From Candidatus Zambryskiibacteriota bacterium (GTDB lineage Bacteria; Patescibacteriota; Minisyncoccia; Phycocordibacterales; DATDWN01): 38,926 nucleotides of DNA. Within the stretch, counting starts at the first letter, position 1. Each line of letters opens with the position of its first letter. The DNA lies in assembly GCA_026394815.1 (NCBI GenBank), contig JAPLZX010000011.1, positions 20,177 through 59,102 on the forward strand, given 5' to 3'. The translations under genes were made by a program, and so were the position numbers. The notes under the pieces were generated by a model. It ran no database searches, was not told the DNA's origin, and worked only from the letters and a program-made list of their open reading frames with translations. Positions 527 through 38,926 of the stretch are shown here, one piece after another.

Positions 527-2269
527 TTATTTCTTATTTTTAATTTCTTCCGAAAATTTTGAAACAAGTTCCTCTTTGGAAATTTGCCCAACCTGTCCGG
601 CATCACGAGATTCTAAAGTAACTTTATCAGCTTCTACTTCTTTATCTCCGATTACAATCCAGTATGGTATTTTTTGATTTTTTGCATCACGAACTTTTCC
701 ACCAAGATTTTTATCCTCATTATCCAATTCCGCTCTGATATTATTTTCTTTTAATAAATCAAAAATTTTCTTTGCATATTCATTATGATTTGTGCGAACA
801 GGAATGACTTTGACTTGCACGGGAGAAAGCCAAAGAGGGAAGTTACCGGAATAATTTTCTATCAAAATCATGATAAATCTTTCAGGAGAACCTATTATTG
901 CTCTATGTAACATTACCGGTCTTTTTTCTTTACCATCTTTATCCGTATATTTCAAATCAAATCTTTCTGGCATAACGAAATCAATTTGAACGGTAGATAA
1001 TTGCCACTCTCTACCAATTGCATCAGTAACCAACAAATCCATTTTTGGTGCATAAAAAGCCGCTTCACCAGGTCCGTCAAAGTATTCTATTTTATGACGC
1101 TTCATAATATCTTCGGCCCATTTCTCAACTCTATCCCAAGTTTTTGGGTCGCCAAGATAACTATCAATTTTTTTAGGGTCTCTGGTGGATAATCTGTATC
1201 TATATTTAAATCCAAAAGTGGCCATCACTTTTTTAGTCATATCTAGAGCCACATCTACTTCTTGGTCAATTTGGTCTTCTCGGCAGAATATATGACAATC
1301 ATCCTGAGAAAAAGAACGAACTCTAGCTAAACCACTTAATTCTCCCGGTCTTTCATCTCTATAAAGCATAGCAAAATCTGTATATCTCAAAGGTAAATCT
1401 CTATAACTTCTTGGTTGGCTTGCGTAAATTTGTGTGTGTTGAGGACAATTCATTGGTTTCAAAAAGAATTCTTCATCAGAATAATTTGAAACGACTTTAA
1501 ACATATCGTCCTTATATTTATTATAATGTCCAGAAATTTTAAACAGTTCGGCCTTTGCAATTTGTGGAGTCCACACCTGAGTGTAATTCTCTTTTGTTTG
1601 TAGCTCTTCTATATATTCGTTCAGCAATCTACGAATTAAAGTTCCTCTGGGAGTATATAAAGGCAAACCACTTCCAATGTAATCAGAAAATGTAAACAAA
1701 TCTAATTCTTTACCCAATTTTCTATGGTCTCTTTTTTTAGCTTCTTCTTGTTGTAAAATATACGCATCTAAATCTTTCTTTGATTCAAAAGCTAAACCAT
1801 AAATACGAGTGAGCATTTTATTTTTCTCATCTCCTCGCCAATATGCTCCAGCTATTCTGTCTAGTTTCCACGAGCCCGCAGGAATCTTGCTCATATCATC
1901 AATATGTCCACCGCGACACAAATCAACAAAATCACCGGATTTTTGTGTGGTTATTTGTTCATTTCTTTCGTTTATTTCTTTAATTAGTTCAAGTTTGTAA
2001 GGATTTCCGGCAAATAATTTCTTTGCCTCTTCAAATGATAGGTCGGATTTTTCAAAACCCTTCCAGGATTTTGCTGTTTCTCGCATTTTCTTTTCTATCT
2101 TTTGAAAATCTTTTTCAGAAACTGGTTTTTTGAATTCAAAATCATAATAAAAACCAGTGTCTATAGCTGGTCCGAGTGTTACCAATGTATCTGGATACAA
2201 ATCCAAAACAGCCGATGCTAGTAGGTGAGCCAGTGAATGACGAATTTTACCCAAATTTTCTTTTTCCAT
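527..2269 (-). CDS. thrS: Threonine--tRNA ligase (short form, apparently lacking the N-terminal TGS domain)
   Basis: RHSLAHLL, DLCRGGH, AGAYWRG, RDHRKLG, LKPMNCP, AAFYAPK and HRAIIGSPERF motifs. Confidence 0.97.
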   Translation of the reverse strand: MEKENLGKIRHSLAHLLASAVLDLYPDTLVTLGPAIDTGFYYDFEFKKPVSEKDFQKIEKKMRETAKSWKGFEKSDLSFEEAKKLFAGNPYKLELIKEINERNEQITTQKSGDFVDLCRGGHIDDMSKIPAGSWKLDRIAGAYWRGDEKNKMLTRIYGLAFESKKDLDAYILQQEEAKKRDHRKLGKELDLFTFSDYIGSGLPLYTPRGTLIRRLLNEYIEELQTKENYTQVWTPQIAKAELFKISGHYNKYKDDMFKVVSNYSDEEFFLKPMNCPQHTQIYASQPRSYRDLPLRYTDFAMLYRDERPGELSGLARVRSFSQDDCHIFCREDQIDQEVDVALDMTKKVMATFGFKYRYRLSTRDPKKIDSYLGDPKTWDRVEKWAEDIMKRHKIEYFDGPGEAAFYAPKMDLLVTDAIGREWQLSTVQIDFVMPERFDLKYTDKDGKEKRPVMLHRAIIGSPERFIMILIENYSGNFPLWLSPVQVKVIPVRTNHNEYAKKIFDLLKENNIRAELDNEDKNLGGKVRDAKNQKIPYWIVIGDKEVEADKVTLESRDAGQVGQISKEELVSKFSEEIKNKK

Positions 2270-2319
2270 GATTCTTATAGCATATCATTTTTTATATGAT
2301 TTTGTATATTTTGATTACA

Positions 2320-2348
2320 TTGACAAATTGTTTTGTGTCTATTATAAA
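2320..2348 (+). promoter_or_regulatory. sigma70 promoter of cassette 1
   Basis: TTGACA (2320-2325), 17-nt spacer, TATAAA (2343-2348). Confidence 0.7.
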
Positions 2349-2414
2349 TATACTTAGAAAAGGTAACAGAAGTCGGCTCGTTTCGAGTCAACTGTTTCTT
2401 TGGGAGATGAAACC

Positions 2415-2630
2415 ATGTCTAACAACCCAGCTGTTGATGGAAGAACTTTCCTAGACGAAGACTGGTTCAACAGAAACGCGAAGGTGGGTTGCCAGACCTG
2501 CAAAGGAGAGGGACTGATGGTGTGGCGTTCCTCTTTTGGTGGCCTTGTTGTTTGGACTCCATGTATTGAGTGTTTCCCGGGGAACGAACAAGCCATAGAA
2601 GTGTCAAAGAGGTCCCATGTTACCAAGTGA
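2415..2630 (+). CDS. Cassette 1: 71-aa Zn-finger miniprotein (CxxCxGxG...CxxC)
   Basis: GGGAGA SD upstream of ATG 2415; CQTCKGEG and CIEC motifs; own promoter and terminator; visibly higher GC than the flanks. Confidence 0.7.
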   Translation: MSNNPAVDGRTFLDEDWFNRNAKVGCQTCKGEGLMVWRSSFGGLVVWTPCIECFPGNEQAIEVSKRSHVTK

Positions 2631-2648
2631 CGGGGAATTGTACACGAG

Positions 2649-5600: not shown

Positions 5601-5865
5601 GATAGCGTTCTTTGTCGACACCTGTTTGTTTATCAAATCGTGAACGATAGGCGACATAGGCATCTATACCTATAATTGGTTTGATGTCTTTTTTTCTACA
5701 GGTTTTATAAAACTCAATTGCTCCGTATAGATTGCAGTTATCAGTTAAAGCCAGGGCATTCATATTATTTTTTTTTGCTTCAGCAACCAATGCATCAATT
5801 TTAGGCAAAGCGTTTAGTAGTGAATAGTGAGAGTGAGTATGGAGATGTACGTATTTAGATGACAT
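2683..5865 (-). CDS. dnaE: DNA polymerase III alpha subunit (apparent ~8-aa in-frame deletion near 3630)
   Basis: PHP domain HLHTHSHYSLL; RGSVAGS, FERFLNPER, PDIDMDF, HAAGVVI, GLLKFDFLG; C-terminal OB fold. Confidence 0.97.
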   Translation of the reverse strand: MSSKYVHLHTHSHYSLLNALPKIDALVAEAKKNNMNALALTDNCNLYGAIEFYKTCRKKDIKPIIGIDAYVAYRSRFDKQTGVDKERYRLVLLAENEIGYKNLIKLVTFAHLEGFYYKPRIDRELLEKYHEGLIAIAPSFSNDILKSLQLANTEQAMERLSWYKKTFDGNSEKPNFFLEITHHPEMKGHEENMKKMVEFATQTNTPLVACHDVYYINKEDRVARDTLLAVQNQNDEKIEEGDDDFSFINQEQAEKYFKNLPDALENTEKIADRCNLEISIGKWFLPNYVVKSGLSYDDELRRITEEGIKKRGLKKTPEIIERMEYELKIIKDKGYASYFLVVSDLLHYAHEHGILTTIRGSVAGSLVTYLSGITNVDPILYKLPFERFLNPERPSAPDIDMDFADNRRDEMIDYVRQKYGVDKVAQIGTFGTMAARGAVRDVTRALGFPYGVGDSVAKLIPMGAQGFPMTIERAVKETPELKTMYEIDVDVKKIIDMAKKIEGCARHISVHAAGVVISPTPLTEYVPLQYDTKGDNKIITQYDMHSVGEDGVGLLKFDFLGIRNLSILADAVKRVKKIENIEIDIENVPIDDKKTFKMLALGETIGLFQLNGDGMTRALMELKPTNIYDINVMVALYRPGPINNIQEYIARKHGKKPVIYLHPKMKDFLDRTFGVLVYQDDLMMTAIEVAGYTWGEVDKFRKAVGKKIREEMAKQHVKFVEGCQKHGGMSEKKSEELWDLFEPFQAASYGKVAYQTAYMKANFPAIYMSAVLTAESGDIEKIAEIIGECKRMGIPVLPPDVNESFEGFGMIKNGAGENLDAIRFGLTTIKNFGEGIASSIITERKLNGKFISLSDFLRRIKDKNLNKKSLESLIKTGAMDFFGDRAELLYNLDRLLTFNKEERNKESDQDSLFLGMVDKNQTSDIKLELAPKTNPTDKLLWEKELLGLYISGHPLDSFKHKLENKETNIKKIKEKSKEREAVVVGGIVEEVRSVMTKNGDKMIFFKLTDLSDSIEVVAFPKIFEEFQDILIPESCIVIKGTFSTRNGGKSILIDKVKPME

Positions 5866-5907
5866 ATTTTACATTATAACATGTCATATGATGGCGCAGG
5901 GAGGGGG

Positions 5908-5950: not shown

Positions 5951-5955
5951 GTTCA

Positions 5956-6255: not shown

Positions 6256-6275
6256 CGTATGTTAGAATTATTTAT

Positions 6276-6896
6276 ATGAAATATATTGTCGGAATTGATG
6301 AGGTGGGGCGTGGCCCTTTAGCTGGACCAGTGACTATTTGTGTTATTGCTTGTGATATAAAACTATACACAAAATTAAAAAAAAATAGACAGTTACCCCC
6401 ACTTGGAAAAGATAGTAAAAAACTCTCTCAATTTAATCGCCAAAAATACGCAAGAACCCTAAAAGCAATTATCCAAGGTCTGCCCTTGGATAAGAAATAC
6501 ATAGGCCTAGCCTATGTAGTGGTAAATGTTTCAAATAAAATTATTGATGAGAAAGGAATTTCTTTTGCTATAAAAAAAGCTATAAGCCAGGGAATTAAAA
6601 AATTAAGATTAAATCCTAAAAATTGTCAAATATTACTTGATGGTGGATTAAAGGCACCAAAAGAATTCAAAAAACAAAAAACAATAATAAAAGGAGATGA
6701 AAGGGAAAAAATTATTGCTTGGGCATCTATACTGGCAAAAGTAACGCGAGACGCTCTAATGTGTCGGCTGGCCAAAAAATATTCACAGTATGGATTTGAA
6801 ATTCATAAAGGTTATGGAACTCTAAATCATCGAAAATATATAAAAAAATATGGTTTATCAAATATTCACCGAAAGAGTTTTTGTAGAAATATTTGA
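6276..6896 (+). CDS. rnhB: Ribonuclease HII
   Basis: GIDEVGRGPLAGPV, DSKKL, LLDG, IKGD, ASILAKVTRD, HKGYGT and HRKSF motifs. Start placed at ATG 6276. Confidence 0.96.
   Translation: MKYIVGIDEVGRGPLAGPVTICVIACDIKLYTKLKKNRQLPPLGKDSKKLSQFNRQKYARTLKAIIQGLPLDKKYIGLAYVVVNVSNKIIDEKGISFAIKKAISQGIKKLRLNPKNCQILLDGGLKAPKEFKKQKTIIKGDEREKIIAWASILAKVTRDALMCRLAKKYSQYGFEIHKGYGTLNHRKYIKKYGLSNIHRKSFCRNI
6469..6518. repeat. Two adjacent perfect palindromes inside rnhB
   Basis: TTATCCAAGG-TCTGC-CCTTGGATAA (6469-6493) and TACATAGGC-CTA-GCCTATGTA (6498-6518). Confidence 0.8.
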
Positions 6897-6930
6897 TTTT
6901 TTCAAAGCTTTAATGTAATGTATTCACATT

Positions 6931-7155
6931 ATGGTTGTACGAATGCGTAGCACAAAAAGTCACCGAAACCACAGACGATCTCACGATGGTCTGTCTAATC
7001 CTGCTGTCACTTTGGACAAAAATACAAATGTTCCACATTTGCGTCACAGAGCGTCTCTTGTTACCGGTCAATATAAAGGCCGAGTGGTGATTGACATGCA
7101 GGCAAAGATTGCAAAACGCGCAAAAAAGGAGAAAGAAACAAAGAAAAATTCGTAG
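6931..7155 (+). CDS. rpmF: 50S ribosomal protein L32 (Cys-less form)
   Basis: MVVRMRSTKSHRNHRRSH...HLRHRA...GQYKGR L32 pattern; basic; upstream of nusB/rnc. Confidence 0.88.
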   Translation: MVVRMRSTKSHRNHRRSHDGLSNPAVTLDKNTNVPHLRHRASLVTGQYKGRVVIDMQAKIAKRAKKEKETKKNS

Positions 7156-7171: not shown

Positions 7172-7200
7172 TTGATAATTAAAATATTGGTTGCTATAAT
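7172..7200 (+). promoter_or_regulatory. sigma70 promoter of nusB-rnc
   Basis: TTGATA (7172-7177), 17 nt, TGC-TATAAT (7195-7200). Confidence 0.65.
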
Positions 7201-7222
7201 AACAATGAAGTTATTTTAAAAT

Positions 7223-8116
7223 ATGGCAAACAGGCACCTTTCCAGATCAATAGTTTTGCAAACACTTTTTGAGTGGGATTTTAGTTCTAAAAATTCCAAA
7301 GAAATTATAGAAATTTTTAAGCGTAATTTGAGAGAATTTGCTCCGGGCCACGGAGATTTTTCTTTTATGGTGAACTTACTCAATGGTATTTTAGAAAAAC
7401 AAAAAGATATTGATTTAATTATAGAAAAAGCCGCTCCGGATTGGCCAATAGATAAGATAAGTATTATAGACAGAAATATTCTGCGCATAGGACTTTTTGA
7501 ACTCCTTTTTTCTGACAGAGGAGAAGTTCCTCCGAAAGTTGCAATAAATGAAGCCATAGAATTGTCCAAGGCCTTTGGTGGAGAAACTTCCAGTAAATTT
7601 GTCAATGGAGTTTTGGGGGCTGTTTACAAAGAACTTGGTGAACCCGGCAAAGAAGAAACCTCAAAAGACAAAAGAAAAGCCCAAATGCCTGCAAATGTAC
7701 CGATACAATATCTTGGCGGAGCTGTCGTCTATGCGCGAGATAAAAAAGATATTTATTTAGCTCTTGTTCATGATGTATTTGGTCATTGGACTTTATCAAA
7801 AGGAAAAATTGAGCAGAACGAAGATATTAAAACTGGAACTGTTCGTGAAATTAAAGAAGAACTTGGACTCGACATAGTCATTAAAGAAAAACTAGGAGAA
7901 AATGAATATCCCACATATCATCCGGAAAAAGGAAAAATAAAAAAACACGTTACATACTTTTTGGCAGAATCAAAATTTGTGGAAATTACACCAGAAGCCA
8001 AAGGAGGATTAGATGATGCCAAATGGTTTAAATTGGCTGATATAATTGACTTAAATTTCTATAATGATATATTGCCGTTGATAACCAAAGCGATAAACAT
8101 ATTACTAAAAAAATAA
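7223..8116 (+). CDS. nusB: Transcription antitermination factor NusB fused to a C-terminal NUDIX hydrolase domain
   Basis: N-terminal RHLSR...DRNILR...VAINEAIELSKAFG...FVNGVL; C-terminal WTLSKGKIEQNEDIKTGTVREIKEELGL Nudix box. Confidence 0.92.
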   Translation: MANRHLSRSIVLQTLFEWDFSSKNSKEIIEIFKRNLREFAPGHGDFSFMVNLLNGILEKQKDIDLIIEKAAPDWPIDKISIIDRNILRIGLFELLFSDRGEVPPKVAINEAIELSKAFGGETSSKFVNGVLGAVYKELGEPGKEETSKDKRKAQMPANVPIQYLGGAVVYARDKKDIYLALVHDVFGHWTLSKGKIEQNEDIKTGTVREIKEELGLDIVIKEKLGENEYPTYHPEKGKIKKHVTYFLAESKFVEITPEAKGGLDDAKWFKLADIIDLNFYNDILPLITKAINILLKK

Positions 8117-8814: not shown

Positions 8815-8862
8815 TTAAAAATTTTTCTTTTATTCAAATATTTTTGATATACTAATATCGAT

Positions 8863-11124
8863 ATGTATTTGAAATCTATAGAGCTTGCGGGTTTTAAAAG
8901 TTTCGCTAAAAAAAGCGAGCTTAATTTTACGTCAAAGATTTCGGCTATTGTTGGGCCAAACGGTTCAGGGAAGTCAAATGTGGCCGAAGCTTTCAGTTTT
9001 GTTTTAGGTGAACAATCAATCAAATCACTTCGCGGGAAAAAAGGTGAGGATTTGATATGGAATGGTTCAAATGACACACCTCGGGCAAATAGGGCCAGCG
9101 TTAAAATAGTTTTTGATAATAGTAGCAAATTTCTACCAATAGATTATGAAACAGTTACCATCGAGAGAGTGGTGCATCGCGATTCTGTAAATGAATATAT
9201 TATAAATGGTTCGCAAGTGCGTCTGCGAGATGTGGTGGAGCTTTTGGCTTCTGCTCACATTGGTTCATCCGGACATCATATTATTTCTCAAGGCGAGGCG
9301 GATAGAATTCTCAATGCGAATATAAAAGAGAGAAAATCTATGATAGAAGATGCTCTGGGTCTTAAGATGTATCAATATAAAAAACAGGAAAGTGAAAGAA
9401 AATTAATCAAAACTCGAGAAAATATAGCTCAAACACAATCTTTGCGTCGTGAAATAATGCCTCATATTCGTTTTTTAAAAAAACAAGTTGAAAAAGTTCA
9501 AAAGACTATTGAATTGAGAGATGACTTACAGAATCAAGCCTTGGAATATTGTAGACGAGAAGATGAATATATAAAACAAACTACAAAAAGAATAGACGAA
9601 GAAAAATCACCTTTACTTACCAAAGAAAAAGAACTAATTAAAGAACTTAATGAAGCAAAAGCAGTACTTGAGGGAGCAAAACATAGAGACGCTACCTCCG
9701 AAGAACTTATAACACTTGAGCAAGATTTACATAAAACCAGAGACGAGAAAGATAATCTATTTCGCGAGGTTGGGAAACTTGACGGTGAGATTTCTTCACT
9801 TGTCAGAATGGTTAAAAAACAAGAAGAGTTAGCTTTTTCATTGGAACACAAAACAATCACCCTGGTCTCTGTGGAAACACTATCAACGCAAATAGAAACA
9901 AAAATCAAAGAGGCCAAAAAGATTGGAGACATAGAAACTCTTTTAAAAACATTGGATGAAGTGGGGGAATTACTTTCCAGATTTATAGACAAAAACAAAA
10001 GTAAAGTAGACATGTCACTTCTAACAGAAGCCCAAAAAGACATAGAAAATTTAAAAGAATCAAAAAAACAAATAGAAGAATCTCTCGGTAAAATAAAAAA
10101 CAAAGAAAGCGAACTATCATTTCAATATACGGCATTACAAAATAAAATAGAAAAAGAAAAAGATTCAAATCGTGATGCAGAAAAAGCCGTTTTTCGTGTC
10201 ATGGCGGAATCGCAAGAAGTTCGTTCCAAATTACACACTCTGGCAGTAGAGGAGGAAACATTACGTCTAATTCGTGAAGATTTTAAAAGAGAACTTACAG
10301 AATTAGGTATGTTACTTGGCACCCATATTTTACAATTCCAATCTCTCTCTTTTGATTTTAATGAGCCAAGAAATGTGCAGGAAGAACGTCGTCGCAAAAT
10401 AGAAAAAATAAAAATCCGTTTGGAGGATGCTGGTGGCGCAGGGGAGACTGATGTTCTAAAGGAATATACAGAAGTAAGCGAGAGAGATGCTTTTTTAGAA
10501 AAAGAGCTGGCCGATTTAGAAAAATCAGCAGAATCTCTAACAGAACTTATTACGGATTTAGATTTACGTCTTTCTACAGAATTTAAAAATGGAGTTGATA
10601 AAATAAATATACAATTTAAAGAATATTTTGCTGTTATGTTTGGTGGTGGTGAGGCAAAACTTAATGTTGTAAAACCAGAGAAGAAAAACAATATTGATGA
10701 ATCAGTGTTATTTAATGACGAAAGCGAATTGGATTTTGCCGGAGGTACTGACGGTAAGGCCGAAGGCTACGACGGTATAGACATAGAAGTGAATCTTCCA
10801 AAGAAAAAAATAAAAGGCTTAATGATGCTCTCGGGAGGAGAAAGAGCTTTGACTTCTATCGCCCTGCTTTTTGCAATCTCCCAAGTTAACCCTCCGCCAT
10901 TTATCGTTTTGGACGAAACGGATGCAGCATTGGATGAGGCAAATTCAAAAAAATATAGCGATATGATAGAAAATCTTTCGAAATATTCTCAACTTATTTT
11001 AATTACTCATAACAGAGAGACAATGTCTCGTGCCGGGATTCTTTACGGTGTCACTATGGGAATGGGAGGCAGTTCAAAACTTTTGTCGGTGGCATTTGAG
11101 GAAGCAGTCACAATAGCCAAATAA
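8863..11124 (+). CDS. smc: SMC-family chromosome segregation ATPase (short, 753 aa)
   Basis: GFKSF, Walker A GPNGSGKSN, IISQG Q-loop, LSGGE signature, LDETDAALD, ITH; coiled coil in between. Confidence 0.92.
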   Translation: MYLKSIELAGFKSFAKKSELNFTSKISAIVGPNGSGKSNVAEAFSFVLGEQSIKSLRGKKGEDLIWNGSNDTPRANRASVKIVFDNSSKFLPIDYETVTIERVVHRDSVNEYIINGSQVRLRDVVELLASAHIGSSGHHIISQGEADRILNANIKERKSMIEDALGLKMYQYKKQESERKLIKTRENIAQTQSLRREIMPHIRFLKKQVEKVQKTIELRDDLQNQALEYCRREDEYIKQTTKRIDEEKSPLLTKEKELIKELNEAKAVLEGAKHRDATSEELITLEQDLHKTRDEKDNLFREVGKLDGEISSLVRMVKKQEELAFSLEHKTITLVSVETLSTQIETKIKEAKKIGDIETLLKTLDEVGELLSRFIDKNKSKVDMSLLTEAQKDIENLKESKKQIEESLGKIKNKESELSFQYTALQNKIEKEKDSNRDAEKAVFRVMAESQEVRSKLHTLAVEEETLRLIREDFKRELTELGMLLGTHILQFQSLSFDFNEPRNVQEERRRKIEKIKIRLEDAGGAGETDVLKEYTEVSERDAFLEKELADLEKSAESLTELITDLDLRLSTEFKNGVDKINIQFKEYFAVMFGGGEAKLNVVKPEKKNNIDESVLFNDESELDFAGGTDGKAEGYDGIDIEVNLPKKKIKGLMMLSGGERALTSIALLFAISQVNPPPFIVLDETDAALDEANSKKYSDMIENLSKYSQLILITHNRETMSRAGILYGVTMGMGGSSKLLSVAFEEAVTIAK

Positions 11125-11613: not shown

Positions 11614-13563
11614 TTAATCCAGTAGTTTGTAATCTAGGACTCTTTTTTCCATATCTGCGGAAATTACTTTAAATCGGACAGAGTTACCTAAAGTAAATTT
11701 GCGTCCAGTTTTTTCTCCTTTCAGGGTGTAGTTTTTTTCATCCAAAACATAATAATCATCATCAATATCACGAATTTTTACCATTCCCTCACACTTTGTT
11801 TCTTTCTCTTCTATGTATATGCCCCATTCTGTTACACCGGTTATTATGCCGTCAAATTCTTCGCCGATATGTCCCGTCATATATTCAACCTGTTTATATT
11901 TTATACTTGCTCTTTCTGCATCGGATGCTTTTTTCTCCAGTTCAGACGAAGCCAGACAAATACTTTCAAATTTTTGATACTCGTTTTGTTCTATTTTTCC
12001 ACCTTTTAATTCTCGCTCAAGAAAACGGTGTACTAACAAATCAGGATATCTACGAATTGGGGAAGTAAAATGGGTGTAATAGGTAAAAGCCAAACCAAAA
12101 TGTCCAATATTTTTTGTGGAGTAAACTGCTTTTGCCATACTGCGGATTGTAGCTGTTTTTATGAGTTCTTCATTTGGTGTGCCCTCCACTTCCTTAAGAA
12201 GAGCATTTATATCTTTTGATGTGACAACTCCATTTTTGTTTTTTAATTCAAAACCCAGGGCTTTTAAAAATATAGCCAAATTTTCTATTCTTTCTGGGTC
12301 TGGGTTTGCGTGGATTCTGTACACAGACTGAGAACCTTTTTTGCGTATATCTTTGTTTTGTGAAAGAAAAACAAATTTTGCCACAGCTCGGTTTGCCAGT
12401 AACATAAATTCCTCCACTAACTTATGTGTAGCCAAACGACTTTTTTTATATACTCGGATTGGCTTTCCGTTTTTATCCAACTCAAATTTTACTTCTTCGG
12501 TTTCAAAATCAATTGCACCTCCGTAAAATTTTTTCTTTTCTAATTTTTGAGCAATTTCTTTTAATTTACGAAGTTCTGTCTGATGCGGGCCATTTTTTTT
12601 GCCATCTATTATTTCTTGTGCTTCTTCATAGGAAAATCGTTTATCACTTTGTATTACTGTACGACCAAACCATTCCTTCAAAACATTTCCTTCTGCTGTT
12701 ATTGTAAATACAGCAGAAAATGTAAATTTATCTTCATTTGGATTTAAAGAACAAAGGTCATTGGACAAAATCTCCGGAAGCATTGGTATTGTGCGGTCTA
12801 CAAGATAAACAGACAGTCCGCGCTTTTCAGATTCATGGTCAAGTTTTGTGTTTGGTGTGACAAAATAAGAAACATCGGCAATATGTATTCCAACTTCGTA
12901 TTTATTATTTCCTAAATCGACAAATGAAATTGCATCATCAAAATCTTTTGCATCACTCGGATCAATAGTCATAGTTGTAACATTTCTCATGTCACGACGA
13001 TTTTTTATTTCGGCTTCAAAATTATTTTTATATTCATTTTTTATTTTCTCTGCTTCATTTTGTACTTCAATAGGGAATTCGATACGAAAGCCTTTTTCCA
13101 AAACAATTGATTCCATTTCTGTATTATTTTCACCTTTTTTACCTATGACTTTAATAAGCTTGCCTTGGAGACTTTTTGATTCCCAATCAACAATTTTTAC
13201 TAAAACTTTATTTCCTTCAGTTACCTTTGTTTCTTTTGGTAGGAAAATATCAACATATAATCTTTTATCATCTGGAATTATAAATGTGCTGCCTTTATGT
13301 TTTTCTACAACACCAACAAACTCTGTTTTCGCTCTTTTTATTATTTTATTAACTTTGCCCTGTTCTCTGTTTCTGATTTTTTTTCCAGTTTTTGAGATTT
13401 CTACGATATCACCATTAAAAGCTCGATTAATATATTGTGGTTGTATTTCTATACTATCTTTATTGGGAGTACCTGCCTGCACGGGTAGGTCAAAAAAACC
13501 AACACCTTTTGTGTTGATACTAATGGGTCCAATCAAGGCCTTTCTCTTCTCAACGTCTTTCAT
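11614..13563 (-). CDS. rnr: Ribonuclease R
   Basis: TIDPSDAKDFDDAIS, VGIHIADVS, VEEFMLLAN, GHFGLA, YTHFTSPIRRYPDL; C-terminal S1 domain. Confidence 0.96.
   Translation of the reverse strand: MKDVEKRKALIGPISINTKGVGFFDLPVQAGTPNKDSIEIQPQYINRAFNGDIVEISKTGKKIRNREQGKVNKIIKRAKTEFVGVVEKHKGSTFIIPDDKRLYVDIFLPKETKVTEGNKVLVKIVDWESKSLQGKLIKVIGKKGENNTEMESIVLEKGFRIEFPIEVQNEAEKIKNEYKNNFEAEIKNRRDMRNVTTMTIDPSDAKDFDDAISFVDLGNNKYEVGIHIADVSYFVTPNTKLDHESEKRGLSVYLVDRTIPMLPEILSNDLCSLNPNEDKFTFSAVFTITAEGNVLKEWFGRTVIQSDKRFSYEEAQEIIDGKKNGPHQTELRKLKEIAQKLEKKKFYGGAIDFETEEVKFELDKNGKPIRVYKKSRLATHKLVEEFMLLANRAVAKFVFLSQNKDIRKKGSQSVYRIHANPDPERIENLAIFLKALGFELKNKNGVVTSKDINALLKEVEGTPNEELIKTATIRSMAKAVYSTKNIGHFGLAFTYYTHFTSPIRRYPDLLVHRFLERELKGGKIEQNEYQKFESICLASSELEKKASDAERASIKYKQVEYMTGHIGEEFDGIITGVTEWGIYIEEKETKCEGMVKIRDIDDDYYVLDEKNYTLKGEKTGRKFTLGNSVRFKVISADMEKRVLDYKLLD
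13471..13490. repeat. GC-rich 20-bp imperfect palindrome in frame within rnr
   Basis: ACCTGCCTGCACGGGTAGGT, encoding (D)LPVQAG. Confidence 0.65.
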
Positions 13564-13581
13564 GGTGGTATTGTAGCATAT

Positions 13582-13970: not shown

Positions 13971-13999
13971 TTGACTCAAGGGTAATGTTTTGTTACTAT
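13971..13999 (+). promoter_or_regulatory. sigma70 promoter of rpsP (leaderless geometry)
   Basis: TTGACT, 17 nt, TGT-TACTAT, then ATG 7 nt downstream. Confidence 0.75.
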
Positions 14000-14006
14000 G
14001 TGGAAC

Positions 14007-14420
14007 ATGTTAAAAATAAGATTACAAAGAGTAGGAAGAAAACACGAGCCAACATTTCGGTTGGTTTTAACTGATTCAAAAAATTCTACTAAAAGCGGTA
14101 GATATCTAGAGAATCTTGGTAATTATGATTCTAGACATGGAGAGACCTCTAATTTTAAAACAGACAGAATTACACATTGGATGTCAAAAGGGGCTCAAGT
14201 TTCCGCTACAGTTCACAATATGCTTGTAAGTAAAAAAATAATTGAGGGTAAAAAAATTAATGTTCTACCACTCAAAAAACCTGTTATTAAAGAAGCAAAA
14301 AAAGAAACACCTGTTAAAACAGAAATTCCAGAAGATATTAAAGAAGAAATAGTAGAAGAAGTCCCTGCAGAAGAATTAACTCCTACCACAGAAAAATCAG
14401 TGGAGGAAATTGCCCAATAG
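14007..14420 (+). CDS. rpsP: 30S ribosomal protein S16 with acidic C-terminal extension
   Basis: MLKIRLQRVGRK...GRYLENLGNYD...WMSKGAQVSATV. Confidence 0.96.
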   Translation: MLKIRLQRVGRKHEPTFRLVLTDSKNSTKSGRYLENLGNYDSRHGETSNFKTDRITHWMSKGAQVSATVHNMLVSKKIIEGKKINVLPLKKPVIKEAKKETPVKTEIPEDIKEEIVEEVPAEELTPTTEKSVEEIAQ

Positions 14421-15528: not shown

Positions 15529-15568
15529 AAATTTGCACATTGCGAATTTTTTGTTACACTATATCTCT

Positions 15569-17684: not shown

Positions 17685-17690
17685 AGCCTA

Positions 17691-20697: not shown

Positions 20698-20701
20698 ATA
20701 T

Positions 20702-32691: not shown

Positions 32692-32723
32692 CGTAGCTTT
32701 TGATTTCGTGATATTCTATATGT

Positions 32724-35678
32724 ATGATTTCTAACAAAGAATTTGAAGAACGGTATAAAAAATTAAATAAAGAACAAAAAAAAGCCGTTGATACTATTGA
32801 TGGCCCTGTTTTAGTAGTTGCTGGTCCTGGTACAGGGAAAACAGAGATTTTAACTTTGCGTATTGCAAACATTTTAAAAAAAACGGATACAGCTCCTGAA
32901 AATATTTTAGCTCTAACTTTTACTGATTCTGCTGGAACTAATATGAGAAAAAGGCTTTCTCAACTGATTGGTGCTTCTGCCTATAGGGTAGTTATAAACA
33001 CCTTTCATTCTTTTTGTAATGATATTATAAAAAATTATCCAGAATACTTTCCAACTATTATTGGTTCGGCTCATATAACAGCGGTTGAATCACTTTCTAT
33101 TCTGGAAAAACTAATAGATAAATTAACACTTGATCTTTTGCGCCCTTGGGGAGAACCCTTGCATTATTTGCGAGATATAAATAAAAAAATAGAGGAATTA
33201 AAAAGAGAAGGGGTTACTCCAGAAAAATTTCAAAAAATAACAAAGGATGAAGAAAAAAGATTTAAAAATCGAAATGATTTATATCACCAGAAAGGAGCCT
33301 ATAAAGGGAAAATGAAAGGAGAACACAAAAAATTTGAACGCACTATAGAAAAAAACAAAGAATTGGCTTTAATCTACATTGAATATCAAAAAACATTAAA
33401 AGAGGAACGAAAATATGATTGGAGCGATATGATAATGGAAGTTTTACATGCTTTAGAGGAGGGGGGAGATTTAAAGTTATCTCTTCAAGAAAATCATCAT
33501 TATGTTTTAGTTGATGAACACCAAGATACAAATAATGCCCAAAACAGGATAATAGAACTTTTGCTTGATTTTCATAAAAACCCGAACATTTTCATTGTGG
33601 GAGATGAAAAGCAAGCAATTTTTCGATTTCAAGGTGCTTCTATTGAAAATTTCTTTTATTTTAAAAAACTTTATCCAATGGCAGAAGTTATAGAACTTTC
33701 AAGCAATTATCGTTCTAGTCAGGGGATTTTGGATGCTGCTCATTCTCTTATGCCTTCAAAGATTCCTCTTAAATCAAAAAATGTTTCATCAGGAGGTGCA
33801 GAGATTTATGTTGCAGAGCTTTCGACTAAAAGTTATGAACTTTATTTTGTAGCACAAAAGATAAAAGAACTTACAAAAAAAGAAAAAATTTCTCCAGAAG
33901 AGATTGCTGTGCTTTATCGTTCAAACAAAGAAGCTTTTGCTATATCTGAAGCATTACAAAGAGAAGAAGTAGTTCATGTTATAGAATCTGACGAAGATTT
34001 ATTATCTGAAAGATTTGTAAAAAAATTAATTATAATATTCGACACAATTTCTCATTATAGTGATGATGAATATTTAATTCCTTTACTTCATATAGATGAG
34101 TTTGAGATTGATGCTTTGGATCTTTATCGACTAATAGCTAAATCATCAAAAGAAAAAACATCTTTGTATGATTTAATATCTAATTCAGAAAACTACAATA
34201 TATTAGAAATTAGTAGGAAACTAAAATCTTGGACGAGATTTGCAAACAGTGATAACCTTTCTGAATTTTTGGAAAGAGTGTTACGAGAGTCAGGTATTTT
34301 AAATTCTATGATTTCATCAAAAAATGCCAGCGCATTTTTAGGTATTGAGAGACTTTTTGAGGAAGGAAAAAGAATTGCTACGAATCGAATGGGGGCAAGT
34401 TTTAAAGATTTTGTGGAATATATAAACATACTTAGAGATCATAATTTATTTATAAAACGTCCAAAACACTCTATAAATCAAAAAGCAGTTCGTTTAATGA
34501 CTGCGCACGGAGCAAAAGGTTTAGAGTTTGAATATGTCTTTATTATAAATGCTACAGAGAACTCTTTTGGAGAAAAAGCTGACCGAGATCATCTACCTCT
34601 TTTACCCAAAGTTTATTTGAAGGGGGATGTAGATATAAATCTAGACAAGAATTCTATAGAGGATGAGCGTCGACTTTTTTATGTTTGCATAACTCGAGCA
34701 AAAAAATTCGTCTATATTACACATGCTTCTTTTGATGAAAACGGGAAAGAAGTTTTAGCGTCACCTTTTGTCTTAGAGATTAGAGCCGATAGAAAAAACA
34801 TACTTGATACAAATCAATTTGAGAAAAAAATAAAAGAAAATCCACAATTACTTTTTGCAGAAAGAAAACCTGTGGAAATTCTAGAAATAGACCGTCAATT
34901 TATTAATGAATTATTCCATTCACATCCATTATCTGTTAGTGCTTTAAATAATTATCTGACATGTCCTTGGAAATATTTTTATAGAAATCTTCTTCGTATC
35001 CCCAGTTCTCCAGAAAAACATCAAATATATGGTATTGCTATGCATTCATCTGTTGAAGATATGTGGCGTGTAATGAAAGATAGGGAGGTAGATAAAAAAT
35101 TTCTTCTCGATTCATACAAAAGAAATCTAGGTCTTTTGGGTATTTTATCTCAAAGAGAATTTAATGAGGCTTTGGAAAAAGGCAACAAATCCCTCTCTGG
35201 TTGGTTTAAATGGTCAAATCCAAAACTGACCAATCCTGTAATTCCAGAATTTAAAATAAATGGAGTAGAATTGTCTCCTGGTATTATACTCTCTGGTAAT
35301 TTAGATAAGGTGGAGATTATCTCTTCAAACAAGGTTGTGGTGACTGATTATAAAACAGGCAAACAAAGAAGTCGTAATGATATAGAAGGTAAAACAAAAA
35401 ACTCTACTGGAGATATGAAAAGGCAACTAGAGTTTTATAAATTACTTTTGAAATTACACGATAACATTATTATGCAAACAGGGATTATTGAGTTTTTGGA
35501 ACCAAATGATAGTGGTAAATATAATCGTGAGGAATTTGAAATAAGTGAAGAAGAAGTTAATAAGCTTATAAAAACCATAAAACAAGCAGTAAAAGAAATC
35601 ACAACCTTATCTTTTTGGGATAAGGTTTGTGATGATAAAGATTGTCAATATTGTTCTTATAGAAAACTACTGAAGTAA
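32724..35678 (+). CDS. UvrD/PcrA-like SF1A helicase fused to a C-terminal PD-(D/E)XK nuclease
   Basis: AGPGTGKT, LALTFT, VDEHQD, VGDEKQAIFRFQGA, NYRS, MTAHGAKGLEF, ERRLFYVCITRAK; LSVSALNNYLTCP...GNLDKV...DYKTG...QLEFY...CQYC. Confidence 0.92.
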   Translation: MISNKEFEERYKKLNKEQKKAVDTIDGPVLVVAGPGTGKTEILTLRIANILKKTDTAPENILALTFTDSAGTNMRKRLSQLIGASAYRVVINTFHSFCNDIIKNYPEYFPTIIGSAHITAVESLSILEKLIDKLTLDLLRPWGEPLHYLRDINKKIEELKREGVTPEKFQKITKDEEKRFKNRNDLYHQKGAYKGKMKGEHKKFERTIEKNKELALIYIEYQKTLKEERKYDWSDMIMEVLHALEEGGDLKLSLQENHHYVLVDEHQDTNNAQNRIIELLLDFHKNPNIFIVGDEKQAIFRFQGASIENFFYFKKLYPMAEVIELSSNYRSSQGILDAAHSLMPSKIPLKSKNVSSGGAEIYVAELSTKSYELYFVAQKIKELTKKEKISPEEIAVLYRSNKEAFAISEALQREEVVHVIESDEDLLSERFVKKLIIIFDTISHYSDDEYLIPLLHIDEFEIDALDLYRLIAKSSKEKTSLYDLISNSENYNILEISRKLKSWTRFANSDNLSEFLERVLRESGILNSMISSKNASAFLGIERLFEEGKRIATNRMGASFKDFVEYINILRDHNLFIKRPKHSINQKAVRLMTAHGAKGLEFEYVFIINATENSFGEKADRDHLPLLPKVYLKGDVDINLDKNSIEDERRLFYVCITRAKKFVYITHASFDENGKEVLASPFVLEIRADRKNILDTNQFEKKIKENPQLLFAERKPVEILEIDRQFINELFHSHPLSVSALNNYLTCPWKYFYRNLLRIPSSPEKHQIYGIAMHSSVEDMWRVMKDREVDKKFLLDSYKRNLGLLGILSQREFNEALEKGNKSLSGWFKWSNPKLTNPVIPEFKINGVELSPGIILSGNLDKVEIISSNKVVVTDYKTGKQRSRNDIEGKTKNSTGDMKRQLEFYKLLLKLHDNIIMQTGIIEFLEPNDSGKYNREEFEISEEEVNKLIKTIKQAVKEITTLSFWDKVCDDKDCQYCSYRKLLK

Positions 35679-36456: not shown

Positions 36457-36499
36457 ATTCATATTTTTTAATTACGTTTCCGTGTTAATATTGTACTAT

Positions 36500-37252
36500 A
36501 TGACATATTTTGTGGCAATGATACTAGGTTTTGTTGAGGGGGCAACAGAATTTATACCAATTTCATCCTCTGGACACCTTATAATCTTTCGTCAAATATT
36601 GGGTGCAAATAATTTTAACAGTTTAGCTTTTGATGCAGTACTTCAGCTTTCTGCTGCATTAGCACTTTTTGTCTATTTTTGGAAGGATGTTTTAAGTTTA
36701 AAAGAAAATAAGACACTACTCTATACTATTTTAGTCGGAACAATTCCAGCAATTATTTTTGGATTATTGCTTGAGAATTGGATGGGGACTATTTTTCGTA
36801 ATACAGAACTCGTGGCGTTAACTCTGATTCTTGGTAGTGTTTTATTTTGGTATGCAGAAAAAGTAGCCAAACAAGATAAGGTAGTTACTTTGGGTAGGGG
36901 AATAATAATTGGGTTTTTTCAATGTCTTGCTTTAGTACCGGGAGTGTCCCGTTCCGGCGCCACTATCTCTGGAGGACTTATCACTGGGCTTAACAAAGAT
37001 GAAGCTGTGCGTTTTAGTTTCCTACTTTCTCTACCAATACTATTTGGAGCTGGTTTGAAAAAAGTTTTCGAAGTTCGTCAAGAATTATTTTCTGTAGATT
37101 TTGGCTTACCACTTTTTTTAGGATGTATTACGGCTTTTATCACAGGACTTATAGCAATTAATTTTCTTATAAAATATCTCAAGACCCACAGTCTAAAATT
37201 ATTTATCTGGTATAGAGTAGTTTTAGCAATAATTATATTTTTGGTTTTTTAA
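36500..37252 (+). CDS. uppP: Undecaprenyl-diphosphatase
   Basis: GFVEGATEFIPISSSGHL, QCLALVPGVSRSGATI, FSFLLSLP, FIWYR. Confidence 0.95.
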   Translation: MTYFVAMILGFVEGATEFIPISSSGHLIIFRQILGANNFNSLAFDAVLQLSAALALFVYFWKDVLSLKENKTLLYTILVGTIPAIIFGLLLENWMGTIFRNTELVALTLILGSVLFWYAEKVAKQDKVVTLGRGIIIGFFQCLALVPGVSRSGATISGGLITGLNKDEAVRFSFLLSLPILFGAGLKKVFEVRQELFSVDFGLPLFLGCITAFITGLIAINFLIKYLKTHSLKLFIWYRVVLAIIIFLVF

Positions 37253-37795
37253 ATAGTTGCACCATTATGAAGGGGTAGACAAAATAGTTTTTTGTATTCT
37301 ATTGTTTTTTCTAAGGGTCTATAAATTACCAACTTTTTGATTAACTTTTTTAAATTTTATTTCTAGATTTCTCTGGTTATAACAATTTTAAGATTCCAAA
37401 TTTTGTAAATTTTATAGCTACTTGAGATAAGGGGGAAGTCCTCATTTCTTATTTTTATTATAGTCGTTAAAGGATCTTTAAAAGACCAAAAATGAAAATT
37501 ATCTTGAGTTAGTACAATTATAAACCTTAATAAAGTTTCATAATAATTAATAAGAAAATTTCAAGTTTATTTGTTTTTTAACCTATAAATCAAAAAAGCT
37601 TTAAATAAATTAGTACGAACTAAATACATTAAAACCAGATGATTAATAGGTAATTTATAACTATTTCCTTGAGATTAAATCCTACTACTTTTTCTGAACA
37701 TTTTTTCAGGTCTTTTTCTTTATAAGAAAAATCTCTCGTAATTTCCCAAAATATTGCTTCGTCTTTTTCATGACGGATAGACAACAAATTGAGTA

Positions 37796-37841
37796 TTATC
37801 CACATATTTTTGTGTTTTTATATGAACACAAAATATATAAT
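37796..37841 (+). promoter_or_regulatory. DnaA box, inverted repeat and -10 box upstream of the tandem-HTH gene
   Basis: TTATCCACA 37796-37804; TTTGTGTT-N8-AACACAAA; TATAAT 37836-37841. Confidence 0.6.
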
Positions 37842-37848
37842 TATCTCA

Positions 37849-38926
37849 ATGAGTTCTGATCTATTTTTTGAAAATAAAAAATATATTTCAGTTAAAAAAG
37901 CCCATCTCTTGACGGGCTATTCAAAAGACCACATTAGTAAACTTTGTCGGCTTGATATTGTTGCATCAAAAAAAATAGGTCAGATTTGGTATGTCGGTGA
38001 AGAATCAATTCTCAAACATAAAGGTTCGTCTGTTTCTAATAATTTCCTTAAAATTGAAGACAGGTATATTTCAGTTAAAGAGGCGAGTCTCTTAACTGGC
38101 TATGCCAAAGATTATATAAGCAAACTTTGTCGACAACAGTTAGTGGTTTCTAAGATGATTGGTCGAGCTTGGTTTGTGGATGAGGAATCGATTTTAAAAT
38201 ATAAAAATGCTCCAACCAACTTTAATTTTTCACAAAATCTTAATGGACGAAAAAAAGAAGAAAAAGTTTTAGTTGAAAAATCTATTGTTGCCAAATCCCC
38301 AAAAGTAAAACATTCTAAACCTTCAGCTTTTAAATATTTCCATATCAATCTACCGAGAGTAATCACTCCTGTTCTAGTTGTTCTTCTTGTCCTAACCACC
38401 TTCTTTCTAAAAAACATCTCTCCAGTAGAAACCACATATCAAGCACTGAATGAAATAGTTGATTATTACAGCACAAAGCTAGGACAACAATACAACAATC
38501 TAGGTAATGTAATTATCAGAGAAACATCAACTCTCCTAAACAACCCAGCACTCTATCTAGTACAGAACCTAAAGTCTCTGTCAGAGAAAGAAGTAAATCT
38601 AGTAAAAACAATTAACACAAAATCTGTAGAATTAACATTAAACACTCCCAGAAGAATATTCTCATTCATCTCCGACTCTCTGAATGGAATAACAGATGCA
38701 AGAAATCTAACAGCTAATGTCATCACTTCACTTAATCCTTTTGACCAAGCAGGAGTACTGGTCTACCAGAAAATAAATAATTTGATTGATAACCTGCTCT
38801 ATCAACCAACATCTAGATTATTTACCACATCTGAAATTGTTACACCGACAGTTGTTAAACCAAAAGTTGTTGTACCTGAAGTACCCAAAGTCATTGTTCA
38901 AAAAGAAATCACTCCTCCTGCTCAAA
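37849..38926 (+). CDS. Partial ORF (runs off window): two tandem excisionase/MerR-like HTH domains, a TM helix, then a presumed extracellular region
   Basis: Open from ATG 37849 to the window end. Repeats YISVKKAHLLTGYSKDHISKLCR...IGQIWYVGEESIL and YISVKEASLLTGYAKDYISKLCR...IGRAWFVDEESIL, then VITPVLVVLLVLTTFFL. Absent from the ORF track because it has no stop. Confidence 0.85.
   Translation, partial: MSSDLFFENKKYISVKKAHLLTGYSKDHISKLCRLDIVASKKIGQIWYVGEESILKHKGSSVSNNFLKIEDRYISVKEASLLTGYAKDYISKLCRQQLVVSKMIGRAWFVDEESILKYKNAPTNFNFSQNLNGRKKEEKVLVEKSIVAKSPKVKHSKPSAFKYFHINLPRVITPVLVVLLVLTTFFLKNISPVETTYQALNEIVDYYSTKLGQQYNNLGNVIIRETSTLLNNPALYLVQNLKSLSEKEVNLVKTINTKSVELTLNTPRRIFSFISDSLNGITDARNLTANVITSLNPFDQAGVLVYQKINNLIDNLLYQPTSRLFTTSEIVTPTVVKPKVVVPEVPKVIVQKEITPPAQ

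Follow-up and report, generated by a model that had tools for sequence, protein, structure and literature searches.

Loss of the anti-Shine-Dalgarno (anti-SD) sequence from 16S rRNA has already been described in lineages of Parcubacteria that lack the ribosomal protein uL1 (Tsurumaki et al. 2022, PMC9297842). For insect endosymbionts and hemotropic mycoplasmas, leaderless translation was named as a possible alternative (Lim et al. 2012, PMC3457768), and the accessible text of both papers leaves open what replaces Shine-Dalgarno (SD) pairing once the anti-SD is gone. Our full-text literature searches, supplements aside, found no description of a leaderless regime in Patescibacteria, Parcubacteria, the candidate phyla radiation (CPR) or Saccharibacteria. 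Here we analyse 38,926 nucleotides of a Candidatus Zambryskiibacteriota bacterium (GenBank assembly GCA_026394815.1, contig JAPLZX010000011.1, positions 20,177 to 59,102), hereafter the window, in which two classes of gene differ in the signals in front of their start codons. Backbone genes tend to carry a −10 promoter box a few nucleotides before the ATG and no SD, and some short, GC-rich open reading frames (ORFs), here termed cassettes, are led by strong SDs. We consider it probable that the genome combines a leaderless, anti-SD-less backbone with an SD-led compartment of accessory cassettes.

Promoter-like boxes at backbone start codons

The window is C6:20177-59102 of a genome (G000) of 654,496 bp in 24 contigs, 96% complete and with about 35% GC. 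Pfam profiles identify its backbone as thrS, dnaE, rnhB, rpmF, nusB-NUDIX, rnc, smc, rnr, rpsP, khpA, trmD, an ABC transporter, a pif1-like helicase, a PGA_cap protein, an S24/LexA-like protein, rpoB, rpoC, dnaG, rpoD, a uvrD/addA-like helicase, dsbA and uppP; no Rfam family (gathering thresholds) and no tRNA (ARAGORN) was found in it. An initial annotation, made by a model from the sequence alone, had proposed that 12 genes of the window carry a TAnnnT −10 box ending 6-9 nt before the ATG, often in TGn-extended form. All 12 boxes are present with the proposed hexamer and spacing in front of an in-frame ATG, ten of them carry TGn (the exceptions are rpmF and the HTH gene), and the S24/LexA-like gene adds a thirteenth case absent from that annotation (Table 1). 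For rnhB, rpsP, the ABC ATPase and uppP, the ATG associated with the box lies downstream of the first start codon of the longest ORF. The N-termini predicted from these ATGs agree with the Pfam domains for rnhB and rpsP, the rnhB product opening with MKYIVGIDEVGRG. ORF lists for the window extend these four genes upstream of their true ATGs, and start codons in genomes of this kind will be wrongly placed by any gene caller that relies on an SD.

For genome-wide counts, genes were selected with a codon-usage log-odds score trained on ORFs of at least 1200 nt, followed by greedy non-overlapping selection, which gave 650 genes; the first in-frame ATG was taken as the start throughout. TAnnnT at spacer 6-9 precedes 240 of 636 starts (37.7%); when the 40 nt upstream of each start are shuffled the figure is 18.2%, so the enrichment is about twofold. 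The extended form, TGnTAnnnT, is enriched about 19-fold, with 109 of 636 starts (17.1%) compared with 0.9% in shuffled sequence and 3 of 523 mid-gene control windows. By position, TAnnnT peaks sharply at spacer 6, where it precedes 17.8% of 635 starts, and forms shoulders at 7-9, above a background of around 3-5% per position farther upstream and 1-3% before internal ATGs, while TGnTAnnnT peaks at 8.8% at spacer 6 and falls to around 0.3% per position elsewhere. Both a genome-wide logo and a comparison with background frequency had been suggested as checks by the initial annotation. When the spacer-6 class (n = 132) is aligned, its logo has a T-rich stretch at −20 to −17, TG at −15/−14, TATAAT, a T at −1 and the A of the start at +1, with only a faint −35, and the excess over shuffled upstream sequence likewise supports the proposed motif.

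The box depends strongly on gene context and stands before most genes that head a transcription unit. It is frequent in genes divergent from their upstream neighbour (n = 130; TAnnnT 67%, extended 33%) and in genes on the same strand as their neighbour with a gap of 11-40 nt (n = 93; 59% and 27%) or 41-100 nt (n = 86; 64% and 28%), and drops to background level where the same-strand gap is at most 10 nt (n = 158; 24% and 2%). Since a ribosome-binding site would still be needed in these closely packed genes, the drop of the motif there favours a promoter over a ribosome-binding element. Same-strand spacing peaks at −4 (a 4-nt overlap, 26 cases) and +1 (21 cases), and genes without a box have an A-rich, G-poor stretch from −10 to −3.

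SD motifs are absent from the same regions. No SD-like 5-mer lies within 25 nt of any of the 28 backbone starts that we examined in the window, and the start regions of nusB, khpA and rpoB, which the annotation had described as lacking a clear SD at normal spacing, bear this out. Genome-wide, SD 4-mers upstream of backbone genes show no enrichment at any position from 0 to 40 nt, counts near the start being if anything lower. SD 5-mers at −20 to −3 occur in 3.5% of genes against 6.2% in a control region, once GTGAT-type words, which derive from the TGaTA part of the promoter, are removed. The outcome that would have told against the annotation, core genes using SDs as often as the cassettes, is thus not seen.

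RNA synthesis begins some 6-8 nt past the final T of a −10 box, so that spacer 6 places +1 on the A of the ATG. The suggestion that the genes are leaderless or near-leaderless is therefore supported by box enrichment, spacing and context, in each case by way of promoter position, and we hold with good confidence that the first genes of backbone transcription units are predicted to be leaderless or nearly so. We propose that RNA polymerase would start at the A of the ATG or 1-3 nt before it, that ribosomes would load on the 5′-terminal AUG, and that packed downstream genes would be translated by termination-reinitiation or coupling. In such a scheme, the promoter would replace SD pairing in the selection of start sites. 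Contigs of three metatranscriptome runs from the same sample, compared with window positions 2200-22000, gave mostly low-complexity pieces of about 35 nt together with two exact pieces of about 180 nt (run X3) at 7819-7999 and 10044-10223.

The 16S rRNA tail and conservation of the boxes

The genome has a single 16S match, on the minus strand of C17 and truncated on its 5′ side by the contig end. Its 3′ exon contains the universal AAGTCGTAACAAGG motif and helix 45, followed by GGAATAATTCAATTTGAA. The tail past helix 45, GGAAUAAUUCAAUUUGAA, has no CCUCC, which answers the annotation's suggestion that the 16S 3′ end be inspected for CCUCCU. The same CCUCC-less type of tail is found in all 14 readable 3′ ends of the order (five from the same genus and nine from other families). 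One full-length 16S from the same genus has no CCTCC anywhere in its sequence, and no second 16S was seen in near-complete relatives. The search returned 30 loci from the rest of the phylum, of which 29 have GATCACCTCCTTTCT; the exception is G080, a genome of the same class as G000, whose tail (L099-L104) reads GACTATTTCATTTTTTT. A further genome, G059, also has the canonical tail.

Two ways in which pairing might have been preserved were considered. CUCCUU lies about 22 nt beyond helix 45 in G000, where it falls in a hairpin that is not conserved in relatives; the sequence following the tail is variable among the 3′ ends of the order, which rules out this CTCCTT hairpin as a displaced anti-SD. 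Motifs complementary to the new tail are not enriched before genes without a box, either as 5-mers (39.6% against 37.5% and 37.2%) or as 6-mers (10.5% against 13.0% and 13.6%). The replacement tails themselves (L001-L020) contain a mini-hairpin: most relatives have UUC-loop-GAA, and two have UUCC-loop-GGAA. The pattern resembles covariation and suggests a new tail that would be folded and not single-stranded. A separate feature of the G000 16S is an interruption of about 840 nt near E. coli position 1397 (C17 around 4135-4976, minus strand), which gives weak matches to group II intron domains D1-D4 (31.6 and 24.3 bits, below gathering scores).

Ribosomal protein uL1 (PF00687) was not found in this 96%-complete genome, whereas all 14 control genomes were positive, a result that falls short of proof because the genome is incomplete. 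Protein bS21 was not found in it either, and IF3 and a short S1-like protein are present. These features suggest a Patescibacteria (CPR) genome from a lineage that has lost both the anti-SD and uL1, the name Parcubacteria being proposed from those two features. Indirect hints of this placement come from the genome size of 654 kb and from one cassette, whose nearest Atlas cluster is mostly Minisyncoccota.

We examined the boxes in relatives at two depths. The first comparison covered the 28 same-genus rnr orthologues for which sufficient sequence lies upstream. In 25 of them an in-frame start is preceded by TAnnnT at spacer 6-9, and 23 of these 25 boxes are TGn-extended; the other two reading frames together gave a box in 1 of 28. 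The box moves with the start codon across the orthologues, four of which begin with GTG. Most same-genus relatives (L032-L060) also have a conserved AAATGGTCAAAT-like motif around 25-40 nt upstream of the rnr start, in the −35 region, possibly the target of a regulator or a −35 element particular to this gene. G047, the closest of the sampled relatives, has a collinear backbone with about 75-80% DNA identity and keeps a box at spacer 6-9 in 6 of 10 orthologues of the window's leaderless genes (examples in Table 1).

The phylum sample comprised G000 in full and 24 other genomes, mostly as pieces of 60-116 kb (only 26 kb for G038), with genes called by the same heuristic. Nine genomes of the set lack the anti-SD and 14 carry it, these 23 being represented mostly by pieces of 76-116 kb, and two more belong to neither count. 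As the sampled relatives are akin to one another and not independent, the comparison is descriptive only. In the anti-SD-less order, the TAnnnT excess lies between +0.14 and +0.26 in all eight genomes, 3.7-19.4% of genes have extended boxes, and the SD excess is about zero. The 14 anti-SD-bearing genomes have a median TAnnnT excess of +0.11, a median SD excess of +0.13 and a median of 4.2% extended boxes (range 0-20.7%). A leaderless signature, as judged from these motif frequencies, appears to be widespread in the phylum at varying levels and consistently high in the anti-SD-less order.

GC-rich cassettes with Shine-Dalgarno motifs

The initial annotation had reported strong start-proximal SDs only in the cassettes. 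This stands with a restriction: within the window, strong SDs are confined to three GC-rich ORFs (hyp135, hyp75 and hyp177/155; Table 1), and three other GC-rich ORFs have none at the start assumed for them. An additional ORF at 13889-14074 overlaps rpsP and is probably spurious. Given that the resident 16S rRNA lacks CCUCC, the question that the annotation posed for this very circumstance, namely what reads the SDs of the cassettes, is a genuine one.

The coding score rejected the SD-led ORFs of the window because of their foreign composition. Genome-wide, 65 non-backbone gaps of at least 150 nt have a GC fraction of at least 0.40 (37 kb); dropping four gaps in rRNA regions of C17 and C19 left 61 islands (30 kb), a few of which hold tRNA genes. 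In these islands, SD cores most often stand 5-8 nt before the following ATG (10, 18, 9 and 14 cases, compared with about 4 per position). Island ATGs behind an SD open ORFs with a median length of 71 aa, 71% of them at least 40 aa, whereas other island ATGs have a median of 18 aa, with 25% reaching 40 aa. In all, 46 SD-led GC-rich ORFs were listed. Their GC content at the three codon positions, 0.53/0.44/0.57, differs from the 0.46/0.34/0.24 of 408 backbone genes and shows coding-type periodicity, and signal peptides or membrane helices are present in several; the former, like some motif counts, were judged by eye from printed lists.

The promoters of the two classes also differ. No −10 box lies within 10 nt of the start in any of the 46 cassettes, and TTGAC-N17-20-TAnnnT occurs within 80 nt upstream of 12 of them, compared with 6 of 316 and 9 of 323 backbone genes. 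Together with the contrast in translation signals, this indicates that the two compartments differ in promoter type too. The −10 box often lies 5-9 nt upstream of the cassette SD, which would place the SD at the very 5′ end of the transcript. Trimming of the leader at an ACA beside the ATG was considered and rejected, as AC directly precedes the ATG in just 8 of 46 cassettes (by eye). A GC-rich ORF at C7:8390-8939 (GC 0.52, TTG start at 8407, running to the contig end) is led by a TTGACA −35, a TGcTACCTT extended −10 and a 15-nt SD perfectly complementary to the canonical 16S end of the outgroups. Bases flanking this SD could fold so as to place it in a hairpin loop. A 62-aa GC-rich ORF led by an SD, with AAAGGAGGTGG upstream, was also noted in the spacer between 16S and tRNA-Ile (C17:3274-3462, minus strand). 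On these sequence features the cassettes are predicted to be real genes with a classical −35/−10/SD grammar that pairing with the resident 16S rRNA would be unable to read.

The slots coincide with the parts of the G000/G047 alignment that fail to align and vary in length. The slot after rnr is 489 nt in G000 and 2.5 kb in G047, and that before uvrD 405 nt and 2.1 kb; GC-rich, SD-led ORFs are found once more in several slots of G047. Of 30 same-genus loci, 20 have such a GC-rich ORF, with an SD-like motif, no more than 100 nt downstream of rnr; this count includes weak motifs and has no chance control. An AT-rich leaderless ABC transporter pair (15569-17096) is missing at the syntenic place in G047 (15515-17674 compared with L152 5031-5554), so not all variable content is GC-rich or SD-led.

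Homologues of the cassettes are few and highly diverged. ORF 11168-11575 has same-slot protein homologues in 3 of 29 other loci (L035, L048 and L060, with 43%, 41% and 32% identity), and ORF 13651-13878 in two (L032 and L036, 47% and 39%). DNA similarity across these ORFs is undetectable or limited to about 60 nt (13651-13878 against L032), and it is the proposed frame that gives the highest score. All five homologues have an SD or a motif resembling it at the right place: AAGGAGGTG, AGAGGT twice, GAAGGAGGTGA and AAAGGGGTGAG. The sequence AGGAGGTGTCAC is common to L031, L032 and L036, with a one-base variant, AGGAGGTGTCCC, in L035, although the ORFs that follow are not all detectably homologous. 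Retention of the SD across such diverged homologues argues against a decaying relic.

Family assignments came from a scan of 13 island ORFs on other contigs against Pfam and PHROGs and of six window ORFs against PHROGs and also Pfam. They comprise one NUDIX protein, one DksA/TraR zinc finger (PHROG 54), two members of PHROG 4301 and one OMP-decarboxylase-like protein, the last of which is not among the 46 cassettes; the remaining scanned ORFs matched no Pfam or PHROG family. ORF 17150-17617 belongs to the phage-related family PHROG 4301 (E = 8e-7) and has a paralogue on C16; its nearest Atlas clusters are mostly from Minisyncoccota and viruses. A search for its relatives among 5.8 billion clustered proteins returned the query only. 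An Atlas search with hyp135 gave a best score of 0.77, which is uninformative. A tblastn search of phage records gave no match, and a scan of viral contigs with alignment A1 found no relatives. A scan of metagenome contigs with a 228-aa cassette gave one weak match (36% identity over 47 residues). The OMP-decarboxylase-like gene had no relatives in GTDB genome contigs and is patchy within the phylum (32 of 301 genomes; best identities 58%, 51% and 48%). Orphan status of this kind argues against recent import from well-sampled SD-using donors.

Some other features of the sequence lie apart from both gene classes. A GC-rich repeat of about 165 nt, present in seven copies of 70-90% identity outside the window, has a long terminal stem whose sides covary (atatc/gatat, aaatc/gattt, aaacc/ggttt); no family was assigned to it, and candidate identities are a structured RNA and a miniature mobile element. 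Within the window, a terminator-like hairpin (AAAAAACTGTGG...CCACAGTTTTTT) lies 3′ of khpA at 14820-14880. The start of trmD is probably ATG 14878 (MNFHII...) rather than TTG 14851, and no box at spacer 6-9 precedes the former. An 83-aa ORF at 25547-25798, which holds the N-terminal part of rpoC, is out of frame with the main ORF (25735-29223), which begins at profile position 53 of Rpb1 domain 1, and the gyrB C-terminus (window 1-255) has a break near 37/76; these breaks could be frameshifts, assembly errors or real features.

Table 1 Start-region boxes, cassettes, variable slots and repeats. Positions are those of the window except for the repeat; spacers are counted from the end of the hexamer to the start codon.
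Feature	Position (strand)	Motif	Spacer; start	Other details
thrS	2267..2287 (-)	TGaTATGCT, hexamer 2279-2284	9; ATG 2267-2269	Pfam tRNA-synt_2b
Variable slot	2270-2682			GC 0.43; ORF 2354-2686 (-), no SD at assumed start
dnaE	5863..5881 (-)	TGtTATAAT, hexamer 5873-5878	7; ATG 5863-5865	Pfam DNA_pol3_alpha
Variable slot dnaE/rnhB	5866-6259			ORF 5881-6192, GC 0.48, no SD at assumed start
rnhB	6260..6278 (+)	TGtTAGAAT, hexamer 6263-6268	7; ATG 6276	Pfam RNase_HII; G047: same arrangement, spacer 6
rpmF	6916..6933 (+)	TAATGT, no TGn	9; ATG 6931	G047: TGtTATGAT, spacer 8
nusB-NUDIX	7192..7225 (+)	TGcTATAAT	22 nt upstream of ATG 7223	Leadered backbone example; short SD-less leader
smc	8845..8865 (+)	TGaTATACT, hexamer 8848-8853	9; ATG 8863	G047: same box, spacer 10
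Variable slot	11125-11613			GC 0.51; holds hyp135
Cassette hyp135	11168-11575 (-)	SD AAGGAGGTG 11580-11588; -10 TATAGT 11593-11598		135 aa, GC 0.52
rnr	13561..13578 (-)	TGcTACAAT, hexamer 13570-13575	6; ATG 13561-13563	
GC-rich island	13564-14006			
Cassette hyp75	13651-13878 (+)	SD GAGGAGGTGA 13635-13644; TGtTATAAT 13601-13609		75 aa, GC 0.46
rpsP	13991..14009 (+)	TGtTACTAT, hexamer 13994-13999	7; ATG 14007	Pfam Ribosomal_S16
ABC ATPase	15552..15571 (+)	TGtTACACT, hexamer 15555-15560	8; ATG 15569	
GC-rich island	17097-17690			
Cassette hyp177/155	17150-17617 (-)	SD AAGGAGGT 17622-17629; TGgTATTGT, -10 at 17634-17639		GC 0.46
pif1-like helicase	17676..17693 (+)	TGaTACAAT, hexamer 17679-17684	6; ATG 17691	G047: same box, spacer 6, before GTG
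S24/LexA-like gene	20688..20704 (+)	TATAAT	8; ATG 20702	
Variable slot before uvrD	32319-32708; GC-rich island to 32723			GC 0.42; zinc-ribbon-like ORF 32447-32632, no SD at assumed start
uvrD/addA-like helicase	32709..32726 (+)	TGaTATTCT, hexamer 32712-32717	6; ATG 32724	G047: TGtTATCCT, spacer 6
uppP	36483..36502 (+)	TGtTAATAT, hexamer 36486-36491	8; ATG 36500	
HTH gene	37836..37851 (+)	TATAAT, no TGn	7; ATG 37849	
Repeat, about 165 nt	C4:54221, C8:17474, C6:7589, C11:6727, C12:34197, C24:22153, C24:26591			

Competing explanations and known systems

In the reading that we favour, the cassettes would be rapidly evolving accessory genes, in part related to phage genes, whose expression follows the classical bacterial grammar, and they would be translated without SD pairing or have their SD motif read by something other than the 16S tail. 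Several observations weigh against this combination of a leaderless backbone with SD-led cassettes. In G047, dnaE, rpsP and the S24 gene have no box at spacer 6-9, and the smc box stands at spacer 10. Strong leaderless signals occur in Patescibacteria that keep the anti-SD, with extended boxes at 20.7% (G064), 15.1% (G117) and 14.5% (G088) of genes, while in G080, which lacks the anti-SD and belongs to another order, a leaderless signal is missing (extended boxes 2.5%, TAnnnT excess −0.04) and initiation must proceed in some other way. The link between leaderless use and anti-SD loss is thus not a tight one, and leaderless initiation would, on these frequencies, be neither necessary nor sufficient for the loss. 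Gene calls and starts are heuristic (codon score, first ATG), so that all percentages are approximate. Most cassettes are orphans, with no relatives found outside the genus; combined with the retention of their SDs, this means that a description as accessory genes with a foreign grammar leaves both composition and SDs unexplained. The cassette class was not clearly detected beyond the genus by SD-to-ATG spacing over whole sequences, a test that is insensitive, giving ratios of 0.67-1.17 in anti-SD-less genomes with G000 included.

The same facts bear on two other accounts of the cassettes. They may be recent or continually resupplied imports, from phages, anti-SD-bearing Patescibacteria or hosts, whose signals would be non-functional signatures of the donor and whose translation would be weak or independent of the SD. 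The hypervariability of the slots between species that share a 75-80% identical backbone fits such an origin, as do the unameliorated composition, the phage-related families (PHROG 4301 and the DksA-like PHROG 54) with viral clusters among the nearest in the Atlas, the patchy OMP-decarboxylase-like gene, and the presence in 29 of 30 other phylum loci of the canonical tail that the cassette SDs match. We nevertheless regard import as doubtful, though possible, since no close relatives were found in clustered proteins (for the one cassette searched), GTDB genomes, viral contigs or phage records, metagenome contigs gave a single weak match, same-slot homologues occur in several species, and each cassette is a tidy promoter-SD-ORF unit and not a random fragment. 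Alternatively, the SDs would be functional and under selection, with a reader other than the 16S tail: a GGAGG-recognising protein or RNA acting close to the 5′ terminus of short leaders, or canonical ribosomes foreign to the cell, for example those of a host. Here the SDs kept at 32-47% protein identity count in favour, along with AGGAGGTGTCAC and its variant before ORFs that are not all homologous, complementarity extending far beyond the GGAGG core (up to 15 nt), a GC3 of 0.57 maintained within a genome of GC3 0.24, the predicted 5′-terminal position of many SDs, and the lack of an evident outside pool of SD-using donors for cassettes that are mostly orphans. No reader was found (no CCTCC in 16S, no bS21, no second 16S in near-complete relatives), the homologue sample is small and covers two slots only, transfer of cassettes within the genus could mimic conservation, and we know of no precedent for such a reading. 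We judge a functional SD of this kind unlikely. The broader proposal, in which SDs, −35 promoters and GC-rich codons are all maintained by selection as a compartment read by a non-16S factor, in its boldest form by host ribosomes, is one to which we likewise attach little weight. If the SDs are indeed selected, they would imply an unfamiliar recognition route or expression outside the carrying cell.

Two further explanations would remove one or other half of the contrast. The −10-like hexamers might be an AT-rich by-product, or a non-SD ribosome-binding motif of the Bacteroidota type, in front of genes that are not leaderless; upstream regions are AT-rich, and shuffled sequence yields plain TAnnnT at spacer 6-9 in 18% of cases. 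Neither composition nor ribosome binding accounts for the extent to which TGnTAnnnT is enriched, the sharp peak at spacer 6 with its T/A pair at −1/+1, the fall to background in the 158 closely packed genes, or the tracking of the start codon in 25 of 28 rnr orthologues, GTG starts included, and we find this explanation highly improbable. Equally remote, in our view, is that cassette ORFs and SDs arose by chance in GC-rich non-coding spacers or structured RNAs, or reflect assembly chimeras. Long ORFs do arise by chance in GC-rich sequence, where stop codons are few; most cassette ORFs have no family, three of the six window ORFs lack an SD, and ORF 13889-14074 is an overlap artefact. Against this stand the SD spacing peak, the ORF lengths of 71 compared with 18 aa, the codon-position periodicity, protein-level matches that are strongest in the proposed frame where DNA comparison fails, the family matches obtained, the absence of any Rfam family from the window, and the recurrence of islands at the same slots in independent genomes of the genus. 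A leaderless, anti-SD-less backbone with SD-led accessory cassettes is the reading we retain. Its surprising part is the cassettes, in which a full classical expression grammar persists where, judging from sequence evidence, the SD would be unreadable.

Among known systems, the Parcubacteria of PMC9297842 are alike in having a 16S 3′ end without CCTCCT, in overlap with the lineages lacking uL1, and G000 shares both features; the accessible text of that paper does not state an initiation mode (the word "leaderless" does not occur in it) and reports no SD-bearing gene class. The insect endosymbionts and hemotropic mycoplasmas of PMC3457768 likewise combine anti-SD loss with an absence of upstream SD-like signals, but are described in its accessible text as using SD-led mechanisms "not at all", whereas G000 keeps long canonical SDs in a distinct gene class. 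Bacteroidota-type "group B" genomes (PMC6028130, accessible text) resemble G000 in the rarity of SDs and in an A-rich stretch before starts, which in G000 belongs to operon-internal genes. They differ in keeping the anti-SD and in having the A-rich motif before all genes, whereas the first genes of G000 have a promoter box and its anti-SD is gone; G000 thus falls outside that group. The cassettes have a GGAGG-type motif at the spacing of canonical SD-led genes, and the resident 16S lacks the complementary anti-SD, so that they resemble SD-led genes without counting as users of SD/anti-SD pairing in this cell.

Organisms of the leaderless "group C" keep their anti-SD and use SDs for leadered and internal genes. 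The G000 backbone has an architecture similar to that of the group C genomes defined with GeneMarkS-2, such as Mycobacterium tuberculosis and Deinococcus deserti (PMC6028130, accessible text), having −10 boxes about 6-10 nt upstream of first-gene starts above background. It differs from them in a 16S without anti-SD, in internal backbone genes without SDs, and in promoters that are mostly TGn-extended and lack a −35. With seven sampled relatives of its order, G000 offers a testable answer to the question of what follows anti-SD loss: an extended −10 that would place the transcript start at the AUG, with packed genes that go without an SD. We hold with good confidence that the backbone regime, as predicted here, is of a known kind in a new setting, carried to the abolition of SD pairing.

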